Shown here piece after piece: positions 717-53,004 of a stretch of DNA of 64,000 nucleotides. Within the stretch, counting starts at the first letter, position 1. Every line of letters begins with the position of its first letter. This stretch comes from a virus. The notes under the pieces were generated by a model that did not search any database, had not been told where the DNA came from, and was given only the letters and a program-made list of their open reading frames with translations. Location: IMG/VR virus record IMGVR_UViG_3300020183_000008, positions 91,271-155,270 of that record; one strand, 5' to 3'. A program made the position numbers and the translations under genes.

Positions 717-3700
717 CAATCAACCTTCGTTCTGACTTTGATAATACGATCAGTTGGATAAAAGAGTTCAGCCGCACCTAAAATTCGGTTCGCTTCATTC
801 TTCTGCCCTGTAGTCGATACAACCACCGCATTGTTGTTAATTATTAGGGAATTAGCTTTACCTTGTTTTAATAAATTAAATTCAGGGGTTGAAACCCACT
901 CTGCGGATGCAGTGGATGTCAGGGTGAATAACAACAATTCGTTTTTGTAAATCCCGCGACCTACTGCGATGCCATAAACTATGTTCATAGTATTTTGACC
1001 TGTGCGGTACATGATCTTCACTTCAGAAGACACAGCAGGTGCGTTTTTCAAAATGATCGTGTTATCCCTACCTCTAATTTCATCAATACTCTCAGGATCT
1101 AATTCTACCCCATCAACAAATACTTTAAGGTCGGGCATGTATATTTCATAGCAATCAGTGATATTTGTTCCTGAAAAAGCTGTTTTCAAATTCAAAAAGC
1201 TATCACTCTGAACAGTATGAACAGTGTACCAAGTCGTTGTCCCGAAAGGTCTGATTTTCATCCCAGGTACAAGAACTCGCGTGAAAAAACTACCGACCCC
1301 ATTCACGGTTCTTTGTCCATTTTGAAAAGTAGCCACTTCATCAGGAATAAAAAGTCTACTTAGACAATAAGTACCGTAAATGTTCAGTATAGGCTCGCGA
1401 GTAGTAAATATCTTATTTGTCCCTGTGGTCTGAACGCTAAGATCCTCTTCGATCAGATCTGAAAATTTTCCACCTTGAATACTTATTTTCGGTGAAATTA
1501 AAGCTAAACCACGTCTTGGATAATTAGGAGATGAAGAACTTGAAATCTTTTTGAAAACAAGACGGTCACCTTCCTCCAAGGGTTTAGTTTCGGGAAAATA
1601 AGAAAACGTGTAGTGAAATTTATTGGTAGCACCTTTGTTTTCGACAGCGAAAGATGACACGTTTCTACTTGTGAATTCATAATCGTAGTCGGTGGAATTG
1701 ATTGGAAGGCGTATTGTTTTTCCAACCTCGTGGTCGTTTCGAACAACACCCCCTGTGCCATTCGATGTTACGATCACATCATTTGATAAATACACCAAGT
1801 CAGCTTCCAACTCTTCATCATCAGATAAGGTATTCGAAAGACCTTGGTAAGGAATTGATGAATAAAGAATTGAGTAAAGGTCTGTGCCTAAAGGAGCGTA
1901 ACTGCCTAGAACAGGAATTCGAACGGTCTTTCCTGCGGGAGGGGCAGTTAGAAAACTAACCGTTAAACTTATTGTATTTAAACCTGTGATAGTATCGATT
2001 TCTAACCAGGCACCATCTGTAGTCAAAGAATCAGAAATGAAACAACCATACTTATAGGTGTTTGGTGTATCCTGATAACCAGCCAAGGCGTATACATACT
2101 CCATCCTGTTACCAGTCGAGGTCGCTTGCCTGATTGTGTAGTTTTTTTGATCAGCTACGGTGGTGATAGTCAAATAAGTCGTTCGGACAAAGTTTACCAA
2201 ACCTCTATTTGGTGTGATGACCTCACAGCCCGTACCACCTAGCAACAGAGTAATTTTTATTACATCCGTGCTCGCCGGAAAGTAGGATGCGAAATTCACC
2301 TCGTAACTACCATCTGATTTTCTGGTTATTTTTGCATTTTGACCGAAGCCGAGAGGCAAATCAGCAGCGGTGTCAGCCTTCTGTACTCGCATGACAGTCA
2401 ACACAGCCATGTTATCGATGGTAGCAGGGACGGTCACTTTTGAAGTCCCGTTACCTACAGTATGCCAAACCCGTTCTACCAAACCACCTTTAATATCTTC
2501 TCTTGCTGTAGTCGGATTGATGAAATTAGAGGCAGGTCGAATGAAAGCACTGTCCAAGTATCCGTTAATGGTTCTTGTTACAGCGAGATTTCTGATTTTT
2601 TGATCCCGAGACCATAAGACTTCTTTTGAGGTCAAATCATCACGAACAGAATAAAAATCCGTAGGTAAATAGGATAGACCAGAACCCGCAGGTAACACTA
2701 AATCATACTCAACAAGAAGGGGTTTGCCTAGAATATCGTTGTTGTTAAGTGGTTTAAACGTAACTTTATTTTTCTTTAGCCTATCCCCAAGATTAACCCA
2801 ACCAGAAATGCCCACCGATGTGTCAGCCGATATTTCCGAACCCGTCGTAGCGTTGGTTACTTTAGGAATCTTCTTTAACCCGATGAAGGGGTTGTAATCT
2901 TGGTAGTCATCTGAGTCAGCACTCGTATAAAAAACAGGAGGTTCAATCTCTAACCTACCGTTCACTAAACTACCCGCTGTAATGTACTGAACTACACGCT
3001 CAGTCATTTCGTTATCAGTGAAGGATCTACGAATTCCATTTGGTTTTCGTAGCATATTGTCCGCAATACCTGATCTTTCAGTTGTGGAAATACCATCGAC
3101 CTGAAGATTTTTTGCGGAAAATAATTCAGATGTGCCACCAAGAGAAAGACGATTAGGTAACCCATCCAAGATATCTCTTAGAGATTTGTCAGCGAGTGAG
3201 GGGTAATTTATATTGAAGTCGACCACATGACGAAGGTCCTCAATTTCATGGTCTGCGATTTCATCTACGAAAAGACCATCAGGACGATCGCTTACAAGGT
3301 CTTCAATTTTTTTATTTCCACCGTTCAAATTTGTTGAACTGTACGCTAAACGATTTCTACGGTGAATCGCACAAACAGGTAATGCATAGACATACCCATC
3401 AACGGTACCTAATGCACTCGTATCTGTATTTGTGCCACCTCCAGCAATAAAATGACCTTGAGGTGTTTTAACAAAATTTTTACCGATGATAGGACTTGTT
3501 TTTGCTCCTTGCGCAAAAACAGCGGGATGGTCTACACCTTCTCGAAATGATAGAAAATCCACACCTTCGACTACACGGTAACGATACTTGATTTGAGTAC
3601 GTTTCGTCGTTTCGCGACCGATGTTAGAATCAACTAAATCATTTGCGATCGGAGTACCTGCGTACTGCGAGTTTCCATATTTTGGAATGTAGGAATCACT

Positions 3701-4247: not shown

Positions 4248-4526
4248 TTAGCAGAACACAGCTCCCGAATACCTTCCGTTCGATATATAAAGCGTAACTC
4301 CATAAAGGGTGAAATCCATTTTTTGCACACACTCAGGGCAAAGAAAAGCATCGAAATGCTCGAAGTCCCCAACGATGCCTTCACCGATAGGATCTCCATC
4401 TTTATAGACGTTCCCAACAACACCTAACCCCAAAGTATGTACTTCCACATCACCTTGGTAGGAGCATCTTGAGCACGACCATCCCTTACACACAAATACA
4501 CTTGTTTTTATCTTCGGAAGTTCCAT
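4248..4526 (-). CDS. Small zinc-ribbon-like hypothetical protein
   Basis: 92 aa with CSRC and CPEC pairs. Confidence 0.55.
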   Translation of the reverse strand: MELPKIKTSVFVCKGWSCSRCSYQGDVEVHTLGLGVVGNVYKDGDPIGEGIVGDFEHFDAFLCPECVQKMDFTLYGVTLYISNGRYSGAVFC

Positions 4527-4602
4527 CCTAAGATGATAGCAAATTTAATACAAACACAATTCTCATTTCAAAAACATCCACAAAGATGTCTGAAATAAAT
4601 TT

Positions 4603-4729
4603 ATGCTCATAAGAAACTACTCACTCTGGTCGCTCATATCAGAGAATTTCGACTCACCTCGTATCCCTTTTGGAGCTTGGCATCGAGTCTACAGTTAAGA
4701 GGGTTTTCTAGCTTCAGGAGCTCAAGCAT
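4603..4729 (-). ncRNA. Possible structured RNA domain (third of cluster)
   Basis: Minus-strand helices by eye: AUGCUU(4729-4724)/GAGCAU(4608-4603) enclosing GACUC/GAGUC and CUCUG/CAGAG; no ORF. Confidence 0.3.
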
Positions 4730-4750
4730 CCTGTCCTAACTGTTTGTTTT

Positions 4751-4807
4751 TACTGTTTCTTATAGATGTTTTTCTTCTTTTCCTATTTCAGTTTTTTGTC
4801 TTTGTTT
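4751..4807. repeat. Partial third copy of the 94-bp direct repeat at 5732/5906
   Basis: TACTGTTTCTTATAGATGTTTTTCTTCT..CCTATT.CAGTTTTTTGTCTTTGTTT, two mismatches to the other copies. Confidence 0.9.
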
Positions 4808-4822
4808 TTTTTCGAACTTTCG

Positions 4823-5054
4823 GGGCTTCACTTTTCATCGTGTCCGTCCAACCACGAGGCTTTCACCTCGATTCTCCGAGCATCTCGACGAGCTTTCATT
4901 TCTAAAAGCGGGGCGAGTGTCTTCTCTGGTCCATCCGTTTCACAGGTAACTTCTTGGGTCGTCGACCCTTGTCGCTACGAGCTACCCACCGCAGACACCC
5001 AACTTAAACTATCGTTCGGTGACGCTACAGGAGATGATGTTATCGGCTGTGCCC
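4823..5054 (-). ncRNA. Predicted ~230-nt structured non-coding RNA of unknown class
   Basis: Seven nested helices (several with G-U pairs, favouring the minus strand) plus a CGAGGU-GAAA-GCCUCG GNRA hairpin; GC-richer than flanks. Confidence 0.6.
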
Positions 5055-5061
5055 TGACCTA

Positions 5062-5627
5062 GTTCAGATGATGCTGTAAAGATTGCACAGGGATGAAATA
5101 GTTCACCCCTTCGAACCAACAGCCTATGCTCCCACAAGACTGACCTACATGAAGACCATTACTTCAGAAAGTGATGGTAGTGAACATCACCCATTTCCAT
5201 AAACCTTTTGCCCTTAACTTCTCAGGTAAACAGTAGCGGAATTCAATCCATTCCCATAAACCTAGATACGCTTCTATGAAGACCATCAATCAAGAAGGTA
5301 ACAGTAGCGGAATTCAACCCATTCCCATAAACCTTTCCCACCAACTTCTCCAAGATAAACAGTAGCGGAATTCAATCCATTCCCATAAACCCTAGATACG
5401 CTCCTACGAAGACCATTAAAGACAAGAAGGTAACAGTAGCGGAATTCAATCCATTCCCATGAACCTTTGACTTAACTTCTCTGAAGGATTGCAGTAGCGG
5501 AATTCAATCCATTCCCACAAACCTTAGATACGCTTCTGCAAGTGTTACTTGCTTACAGAATGAACTCTGTCTTTCGGTAAACTAACTATCAAGAATAGAT
5601 ACCTGTTCACACATTGTTCATCTGAAC
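5062..5627 (-). ncRNA. Predicted ~566-nt ncRNA enclosing a repeat array
   Basis: Predicted +1 near 5627 begins GUUCAGAUGA, perfectly complementary to UCAUCUGAAC at 5071-5062. Further nested helices ACAGG/CCUGU, AUAGUU/AACUAU, CGAA/UUCG. Confidence 0.6.
5175..5523. repeat. CRISPR-like array of 32-bp repeats with alternating related spacers
   Basis: CAGTAGCGGAATTCAATCCATTCCCATAAACC at 5231, 5302, 5360, 5434, 5492 (0-1 mismatch), plus a degenerate copy at 5175-5205; spacers 25/39/26/42/26 bp. Confidence 0.95.
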
Positions 5628-5633
5628 GATTAC

Positions 5634-5663
5634 ATAATAGACAGACAATTTCGGCGGAGTCAA
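5634..5663 (-). promoter_or_regulatory. Sigma70-type promoter reading into the repeat array, containing the TCCGCCGAAAT box
   Basis: Minus strand TTGACT-18 nt-TATTAT. Confidence 0.65.
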
Positions 5664-5731
5664 TAACTCATCTAAGATTTTCAAAATAAATATACTTGAC
5701 TACTTTTGATGCATTTAATCGAGGGCAGTCT

Positions 5732-5999
5732 TACTGTTTCTTATAGATGTTTTTCTTCTCTTCCTATTACAGTTTTTTGTCTTTGTTTCAAAGAAACAAA
5801 GTAAGAGGGTAAGATCTATATCTATTTATATTTATATTTATAATGATCTAAAATATAGCATTTTATGTTTGATTACTTTTATAGCACTATGACATGATAG
5901 ATACCTACTGTTTCTTATAGATGTTTTTCTTCTCTTCCTATTACAGTTTTTTGTCTTTGTTTCAAAGAAACAAAGTAAGAGGGTAAGATCTATATCTAT
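5732..5999. repeat. Two identical 94-bp direct repeats (5732-5825, 5906-5999) flanking an AT-rich spacer
   Basis: Direct comparison; each copy contains the inverted repeat CTTTGTTTC-AAA-GAAACAAAG. Confidence 0.95.
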
Positions 6000-6044
6000 A
6001 AATATTGAGTAAAGGATAGTTCATAGGAGAAGAGAAGAGGATAG

Positions 6045-6092
6045 GGATACCTCATAGGATACCTCATAGGATACCTCATAGGATACCTCATA
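6045..6092. repeat. 4 x 12-bp tandem repeat GGATACCTCATA (iteron-like)
   Basis: Four exact copies, with degenerate copies near 6014 and 6101. Confidence 0.95.
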
Positions 6093-6161
6093 GAAGAGAA
6101 GAGTAGCTCATAGGGTGAGATAAATCGTTCATCCTTTTCAACCTACGGATGGGGGTGAAAG

Positions 6162-52652: not shown

Positions 52653-52935
52653 GAATCAGACTTTCACATTCAAAGTGACCCCTTTGTTCCGCGAGACAGT
52701 GGAATCCTCTTTATGTTATGTGAAGAATGTTAATTTATCAAGAGAATTTGATCTTAGTCAAAGTGAAGTGTCATTGACGAGTCGGCAAGTCTCTTTGATC
52801 CTAGAGGGTTTGCAACCAGTTATTGAGTACCACAATAATCATGAGATGTGGGAGAAGGCTGATGCCTTCAAAGAAATTCAAACTTATCTGATTTTAGAAT
52901 CTAAGAATCAGTATTTCGGGGATGTGGCGAAATAG
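52651..52935 (+). CDS. Hypothetical protein (3' end overlaps tRNA)
   Basis: 94-aa ORF with AGGTG SD. Confidence 0.5.
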   Translation: MNQTFTFKVTPLFRETVESSLCYVKNVNLSREFDLSQSEVSLTSRQVSLILEGLQPVIEYHNNHEMWEKADAFKEIQTYLILESKNQYFGDVAK

Positions 52936-53004
52936 GTAGACGCATCGGACTTAAAATCCGGTGGGAGTAATCTCGTGCCAGTTCGAGTCTGGTCATCCCT
53001 ACCA
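52918..53004 (+). tRNA. trnL: tRNA-Leu(TAA)
   Basis: Acceptor GGGGATG/CATCCCT-A-CCA, anticodon arm TCGGA-CTTAAAA-TCCGG, long variable arm, T-loop TTCGAGT. Confidence 0.96.

Follow-up and report, generated by a model that had tools for sequence, protein, structure and literature searches.

A structured RNA domain, conserved within a single clade of freshwater huge phages and apparently undescribed

Ornate orphan RNAs of phages and bacteria, such as GOLLD, ROOL, OLE and raiA, are multi-domain molecules of several hundred nucleotides that combine GNRA loops, invariant junctions and variable peripheral hairpins. Large structured RNAs that are supported by covariation and lack an assigned class are rare, and they have repeatedly opened new biochemistry. 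To our knowledge, huge phages are uncultivated and their noncoding RNAs are almost wholly undescribed. The general properties of GOLLD, ROOL, OLE and raiA that are used for comparison here were taken partly from a preprint (bioRxiv 10.1101/2024.12.08.627333).

The DNA analysed, referred to below as the window, was a stretch of 64 kb forming the end of a 155-kb IMG/VR virus record. The origin from a huge phage was deduced from the fact that a record of this length was judged only 35% complete. The public runs containing the stretch were all lake-water DNA metagenomes, with no RNA run among those listed, and the contigs of four such runs were fragmented and identical, showing no variants and no joints. 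It was concluded that positions 4823-5054 of the minus strand form the middle domain of a noncoding RNA that is conserved and built from several domains. The domain was located in a 1.6-kb noncoding spacer (4527-6161) dividing two gene groups. The leftward genes filled about 40 kb to the left of the spacer and started with a small zinc-ribbon gene, followed by two giant proteins of about 1150 aa that were paralogs with 27% identity. No Pfam or PHROG matches were obtained for either giant protein, and for the one next to the spacer, of 1143 aa, a protein atlas gave only a weak lead, to DUF4815-like phage proteins (0.88). The rightward genes, extending over at least 25 kb to the right, encoded a zincin-like protein, a DksA-type zinc-finger protein, a clamp loader and a ribonucleotide reductase.

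Relatives were reached through homologs of the neighbouring 1143-aa gene (64-78% identity), which were encoded on long contigs that shared the gene order of the window and had a spacer of 1.3-1.9 kb. Each of the five readable spacers (L003, L007, L009, L012 and L004) contained a clear homolog of 217-266 nt, and the core, the linker and the 3' domain could be aligned with these five homologs. The resulting six sequences formed two subclades, one consisting of the window, L003 and L007, and the other of L009, L012 and L004. In a sister clade (L010, L014 and G001), whose neighbour gene was 47% identical, the operon was kept without the core. Neither nhmmer nor a covariance model of domain II revealed a copy of the core in this clade, elsewhere in the window or in G001, a complete 356-kb genome of the clade that has terminal repeats; the same model scored 77-123 bits on all six sequences and gave nothing else significant. 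The equivalent place in the sister clade was occupied by a 115-aa gene that had no family and no homolog in the phage of the window. A terminal segment of much higher G+C content (0.52-0.54 versus about 0.33-0.40) and strong GC skew was also noted in the contig G000 (1-20000, outside the window) and in G001 (350001-355874).

Further searches were performed outside these contigs and within the record itself. No second copy of the RNA was detected by BLAST within the 155-kb contig, and neither the spacer nor 20 kb of sequence had a BLAST match in a phage collection. Scans of IMG/VR, JGI metagenomes and GTDB genomes with exact patterns returned nothing or chance matches in coding sequence. The matches L005, L006, L011 and L013 were rejected as chance ones of this kind, and the last of them, in an Oligoflexus MAG, was no evidence on the host. 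A protein-guided scan of IMG/VR found nothing with a single-sequence query and, with an alignment query, only the RNA-less sister clade.

The initial annotation had proposed a novel noncoding structured RNA on the minus strand, and this was borne out by the homologs and by the covariance scans, in which neither the locus in the window nor the five homologs matched an Rfam family. The sole gathering-level hit of Rfam 15 in the 64-kb window was a tRNA at 52918-53001, while permissive scans of the locus, of the core alone and of the five homologous loci gave noise or nothing. No covariance-model score in Rfam 15 came near the threshold for RNase P, tmRNA, SRP, group I and II introns, riboswitches and self-cleaving ribozymes, or for GOLLD, ROOL, OLE, HEARO and raiA. 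The 6S models gave no hit at E values up to 10 with either the 266-nt core alone or the homologs, no tmRNA was reported by ARAGORN, and a description of this RNA was not found in the literature searched. A sponge of the CsrB/Rsm type was considered as well. It was not supported, since GGA motifs were not enriched: GGA and AGGA counts were equal to those of dinucleotide shuffles in four of the six transcripts, and the other two were marginal (p about 0.03).

When folded alone, the sequence was no better than chance. The minus-strand minimum free energy was -74.1 kcal/mol versus -68.4 +/- 4.7 kcal/mol for the shuffles (z = -1.22), and 21 of 200 shuffles were as good. The z value of the plus strand was 0.03. 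In an evaluation of given structures, the exact nested structure of the initial annotation had an energy of -41.6 kcal/mol, the helices of the comparative model described below -54.6 kcal/mol, and the minimum free energy structure -76.3 kcal/mol. G-U pairs had been said to favour the minus strand; two of them were indeed invariant in all six sequences, and many further G-U cells were present. The invariant G-U pairs and the plus-strand z value together point to an RNA on the minus strand. An overlapping plus-strand ORF of 98 aa was of low complexity and had no family match. Because indels of 35 and 49 nt were present among the homologs, no reading frame was conserved.

The structure was evaluated on the six sequences. 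RNAalifold applied to a plain MAFFT alignment predicted 47 pairs, 18 of them with compensatory changes. The comparative model was built helix by helix in a manual register and was then counted on a MAFFT alignment made without structure (A3). In this alignment 88.2% of cells were paired, as against 37-52% with the partners slid by 1-3 columns, and compensatory changes affecting both sides were recorded in 20 of the 45 model pairs versus 3-6 pairs in the slid controls. The observed covariation score was reached by none of 500 shuffles. When domain II was taken alone in a model-fitted alignment, 85% of cells were paired versus 39-48% in the controls; this realignment left the register of arms H5 and H6 unfixed, so the manual register was relied on. 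The six sequences belong to two subclades only, and many of the compensatory changes are therefore single events between the subclades. Based on all comparisons, we consider it very probable that the stretch is a conserved structured RNA.

The core folded into five arms (Table 1). Compensatory pairs made up three of six in the closing stem of H2 and five of six in its inner stem, as counted in the manual register. The base of H3 was formed by G-U, C-G and U-A pairs that were invariant in the six sequences, while its four-pair extension and inner hairpin (4968-4956) occurred in this phage only, the tip being a 35-nt insertion. Four of five pairs in H5 and three of seven in H5b were compensatory; H5 reached 8 bp in L009 and L012, and H5b was capped by a GNRA loop in all six sequences (GAAA here, GGAA in the relatives). 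The pairs of H6 were invariant and its loop was variable, the stem being lengthened to 10 bp in L007. One compensatory pair, C-G to U-A, was recorded in H7, which was longer in L009, L012 and L004. Lineage-specific insertions were confined to hairpin tips or junctions, as in H3 of this phage (35 nt), past the junction strand in L004 (49 nt) and in the longer H6 of L007. Insertions so placed, with the stems kept, correspond to the usual behaviour of structured RNAs.

The initial annotation had arranged the stretch as seven nested helices in a long bulged rod. All the complementary segments that it quoted were found on the minus strand at the positions given, and its GAAA-capped side hairpin (4870-4855) was confirmed across the homologs as arm H6. 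However, the fold was not conserved as a nested rod. On alignment A3 the rod had 76.5% of cells paired and a covariation score of 0.188. Its helix 3 (5036-5031/4886-4881) was 70% paired and its helix 4 (AGCG/CGCU) 38%, and neither was conserved; helix 5 (5000-4993/4922-4915) was 65% paired and was kept only in the three closest sequences. Helices 6 and 7 (4986-4980/4951-4945 and the inner GGGUC/GACCC) were placed mostly inside the 35-nt insertion unique to this phage, and the inner three pairs of helix 6 were the only part matching a conserved arm. The two outermost helices did not vary in five of six sequences and were disrupted in L004, and therefore provided no covariation for or against them. 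The substitutions among the homologs disrupted helices 3 and 4 of the rod, while the five branched arms covaried or were kept. Since the rod was not conserved, the proposal of a 6S-like decoy that had been derived from it was not supported. The stretch thus serves as a cautionary case, in which a convincing single-sequence rod was largely wrong and the claim of a novel structured RNA underneath it was right.

Additional long-range contacts were proposed for the core. The nearly invariant strands around 5045-5033 and 4943-4927 contained one varying position each, and the changes at these positions were complementary: a lone A-U in three sequences was swapped for U-A in the other three, between two otherwise invariant blocks. 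This swap supports a candidate 4-bp helix, LR2, that would enclose H2 and H3 in a three-way junction. Another candidate helix, LR, in which four pairs were kept in all six sequences, a compensatory fifth pair was found in L012 and 93% of cells were paired, would close H5 and H6 into a second three-way junction. Because the thermodynamic pair probability of both was low (0.00-0.08), LR and LR2 were treated as candidates, with one covarying pair behind each. LR competed with the second helix of the rod (CAGCC/GGUUG), which lost three of its five pairs in L004. The outermost GGGC/GCCC stem may close the whole core; its predicted probability was high in five sequences, it showed no covariation and it was broken in L004.

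The 8-bp helix 5 of the rod was a separate case. It was complementary in the window, L003 and L007 (with one mismatch), included two compensatory changes, and was absent from L009, L012 and L004. This helix excluded H2 and H5, both of which were supported in all six sequences, and the energy model favoured it in the window and L003 with pair probabilities of 0.85 and 0.65, respectively. It is possibly a coincidence or an alternative conformer. As it was both kept and energetically favoured, the native fold in this phage could differ from the conserved one or switch between the two.

A sigma-70-like promoter was located upstream of the core and was kept in all five relatives, matching the consensus at 10 of 12 positions in the window and in L003. 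A 10-nt box overlapped the -35 element (window 5650-5662) and recurred in inverted form 60-95 nt further upstream in L009, L012 and L003, which makes it a candidate operator. The first transcribed bases were predicted to close a 5' domain. The closing duplex had an energy of -20.4 kcal/mol in the window, as compared with -9.9 +/- 2.7 kcal/mol for the shuffles, and of -15.7 and -18.6 kcal/mol in L003 and L007; 0.3-1.3% of shuffles were as good in these three sequences. In the other subclade the duplex was weaker, with -15.5 kcal/mol in L012 (5% of shuffles) and values within the shuffle range in L004 and L009.

The 5' domain of this phage carried a repeat array that looked like a CRISPR, its spacers alternating between two types. 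The array was absent from all five relatives, which kept the flanking RNA domains. Because of its insertion into the 5' domain, the distance from the -10 box to the core was 573 nt here versus 123-166 nt in the relatives, and the transcript was about 1020 nt long (1023 nt, counted from the promoter through the 3' domain, versus 561-609 nt in the relatives). Being absent in relatives and placed inside the 5' domain, the array was interpreted as a recent phage-specific tandem amplification rather than a partner RNA. A CRISPR array with a tracrRNA-like partner was rejected, as the relatives kept the RNA without the array and the neighbouring proteins had no Cas-family matches in Pfam or PHROGs. 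Co-transcription of the stretch with the array, as put forward in the initial annotation, was found to be very probable, given one conserved promoter upstream of both and no intrinsic terminator between the array and the core in a terminator scan. The suggestion that a separate RNA began 8 nt past the array RNA was not upheld, since in the five relatives without the array the 5' domain ran straight into the core.

Downstream of the core, an A-rich purine linker contained a partial copy of a direct repeat that was also present upstream of the promoter (5732-5832 and 5906-6006). Such purine-rich direct repeats bracketed the promoter and the RNA in every relative (about 241-300 and 812-870 in L012), and in the RNA-less sister clade they bracketed a short AT-rich spacer (4797-4868 and 5136-5208 in L014). 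The copies were near-identical within one genome and differed between genomes. Their pattern suggests concerted evolution or a shared role at the DNA level. Four exact 12-bp tandem units (window 6045-6092) were observed beside an AT-rich tract, in the interval separating the full copies of the repeat, and no other occurrence of this unit in the 155-kb contig was found by BLAST.

The 3' domain was conserved and had compensatory changes in 16 of its 33 predicted pairs; the same six-base motif was present in two of its loops. A weak hairpin with a short U run could be the 3' end of the RNA in this phage, and it was below the threshold of the terminator scan and not conserved in relatives. In L003 a tandem duplication of its own, with a unit of ~45 nt, was noted between the 3' domain and the 92-aa gene (about 3500-3590) and is a further expansion of the transcript confined to one lineage. 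In all clades (window, L002, L003, L004, L008, L009, L012, L010 and L014), a -10-like hexamer was present six to seven bases ahead of the start codon of the 92-aa gene, and no Shine-Dalgarno sequence was found before the gene in the sequences compared. The gene may be expressed as a leaderless message. Since the hexamer was present in every clade, the RNA-less one included, the downstream genes appeared to be independent of the promoter of the RNA.

Table 1. Positions of the RNA, its domains and neighbouring genes in the window, and of the core homologs in the contigs of the relatives
Feature	Position	Strand or direction	Remarks
Sigma-70-like promoter	5634..5663	-	-35 5663-5658, 18-nt spacer, -10 5639-5634; kept in 5/5 relatives
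5' domain	5062..5627	-	closed by first transcribed bases 5627-5618 pairing with 5071-5062
Repeat array	5164-5526	-	inserted in 5' domain, this phage only
Core domain (4823-5054 and a few flanking bases)	4818..5061	-	branched fold with five arms, conserved
Arm H2	4989..5030	-	closing stem 5030-5025/4994-4989; inner stem 5021-5014/5003-4996
Arm H3	4945..4986	-	conserved base 4982-4980/4951-4949
Junction strand	4927..4943	-	nearly invariant; 4935-4932/5039-5036 (candidate LR2); 4931-4927/4854-4850 (candidate LR)
Arm H5 with hairpin H5b	4884..4917	-	H5 4917-4914/4887-4884; H5b 4909-4903/4898-4892
Arm H6	4855..4870	-	GAAA-capped side hairpin of the initial annotation; 29/30 cells paired
Arm H7	4829..4842	-	short hairpin; 18/18 cells paired
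A-rich purine linker	4751..4817	-	57-nt partial copy of direct repeat, 96% identity over 57 nt
3' domain	4608..4745	-	three-hairpin fold and 21-nt invariant block, conserved
Weak hairpin with short U run	4570..4590	-	candidate 3' end of the transcript here; below terminator-scan threshold
-10-like hexamer	4533-4538 (element 4524..4538)	-	six bases ahead of ATG 4526, start of the 92-aa gene
92-aa zinc-ribbon ORF	4248-4526	leftward	first gene beyond the spacer
Giant protein, 1143 aa	716-4147	leftward	
Giant protein, paralog	3-719	leftward	
Core homolog in L003	3030-3247		
Core homolog in L007	2106-2333		
Core homolog in L009	2189-2405		
Core homolog in L012	588-804		
Core homolog in L004	279-544		

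We proposed that a conserved branched multi-domain RNA is made by the host polymerase as a stable, factor-binding molecule. The full statement is regarded as evenly balanced between right and wrong, and confidence in the mode of action itself is low. The conserved sigma-70-like promoter would be used by the host RNA polymerase to produce the stable RNA. Its core folds into the branched arms H2, H3, H5/H5b, H6 and H7 with nearly invariant unpaired strands at the junctions. LR2 and LR would probably organise these arms into two adjacent three-way junctions, and the conserved junctions could bind a factor such as a protein, a ligand or another RNA. The molecule would then act as a ribonucleoprotein scaffold or decoy rather than as the leader of a message. 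Several findings favour a stable independent RNA. Its 5' end is locked in a helix, its domains are closed and modular with lineage-specific expansions, it has its own promoter with a repeated box overlapping the -35 element, and the 92-aa gene has its own -10-like element.

The main rival is a cis-acting structured leader, which we regard as possible though rather doubtful. According to it, the transcript would be a 5' untranslated region that regulates the ~40-kb leftward block in cis. Conceivable means include termination resistance conferred on the polymerase, stabilisation of the message and riboswitch-like sensing of a ligand. In every homolog the RNA was on the same strand as the leftward block and directly upstream of it. 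It leads a run of about 40 kb of genes that share its orientation. The terminator scan found no intrinsic terminator between the RNA and the 92-aa gene, and in L009, L012 and L004 the 3' domain abutted the gene, ending about 40 nt before it. The invariant junction nucleotides are, in addition, typical of aptamers. Against a leader of this kind are the -10-like element that the 92-aa gene keeps beside its start codon in all clades and the sister clade, which keeps the operon without the core; further, a 520-nt array insertion was tolerated and no expression platform could be defined. A transcript associated with an origin of replication, whose RNA-DNA hybrid at the purine-rich linker would persist and prime replication in the manner of ColE1 RNA II or the T4 origin transcripts, is considerably less probable than a leader. 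Such a role would agree with the purine-rich transcript, with a locus placed where the coding strand switches and where the cumulative GC skew of the 155-kb contig is lowest (window 5770), with the adjoining AT-rich DNA, 12-bp iterons and direct repeats, and with the clamp-loader and ribonucleotide-reductase genes on the other side. Yet the skew of the complete 356-kb G001 followed gene orientation, with no genome-wide V and only a local minimum at the homologous spacer, so that divergent transcription accounts for the skew minimum; moreover, the iterons and the AT-rich tract were upstream of the promoter and not downstream of it.

The 6S-like decoy of the initial annotation, in which a long bulged rod would mimic an open promoter and act on RNA polymerase, is highly improbable. 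The size of about 230 nt is suitable, and for this phage and L003 the energy model did yield a central helix resembling a rod, but the rod lost its helices 3 and 4 among the homologs and its helix 5 in half of them, the conserved fold was branched, and the 6S models remained silent even at the permissive E values. It is equally improbable that the stretch has no function as an RNA and that its conservation is due to DNA-level signals or recent common descent, the helices having arisen by chance. The single-sequence z of only -1.2 and the small number of sequences would fit such a reading, against which there are many compensatory changes, the tolerance of G-U pairs on one strand only, the far lower values of the slid controls and the hairpin tips, which varied in length while the stems were kept.

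Apart from the stable factor-binding RNA that we prefer, it was tentatively considered that the whole ~600-nt transcript could be a large structured phage RNA of a new class, active in its own right, which is possible and on balance unlikely. Such an RNA might sense a ligand or a protein as a switch, act as a ribozyme or assemble itself into an RNA particle. It would be made early by means of the host polymerase, and growth by added modules would be tolerated, the tandem hairpin array of this phage being an example. The competing helix kept in the closest relatives might then represent the other state of a switch between conformations. With its defined promoter, clear domain boundaries, six natural variants and natural sites of insertion, the locus lends itself to direct synthesis and probing of the RNA. 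In any case, the structured RNA domain is real and conserved, apparently undescribed, and carried by one clade of freshwater huge phages.

The RNA was also compared with described systems. It resembles 6S RNA in its similar size and strong sigma-70-type promoter, the control of phage or host polymerase being a plausible common theme; unlike 6S RNA, its conserved fold is branched and not a rod with a central bubble, and no 6S model matched it. Like the processive-antitermination leaders HK022 put and EAR, it is structured, closely follows a promoter and precedes a long operon, and the two candidate adjacent three-way junctions with invariant junction bases are reminiscent of tandem-aptamer riboswitches such as that for glycine. 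In contrast to these elements, the RNA is much longer and has no sequence or model similarity to them, no terminator or expression platform was identified at the locus, and a promoter element separate from that of the RNA seems to serve the downstream gene.

Similarly to ColE1 RNA II and the T4 origin transcripts, a long structured transcript here runs into a purine-rich tract at a strand switch beside replication genes. It differs from them in that the GC skew is explained by transcription and the origin is a candidate only. Unlike the ornate RNAs, the RNA is found at a fixed strand-switch locus and not near tRNAs, has no covariance-model match and is known so far from one narrow phage clade. 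It is nevertheless like them in being a multi-domain noncoding molecule of several hundred nucleotides with GNRA loops, invariant junctions and variable peripheral hairpins, and in being carried by phages from lake metagenomes.
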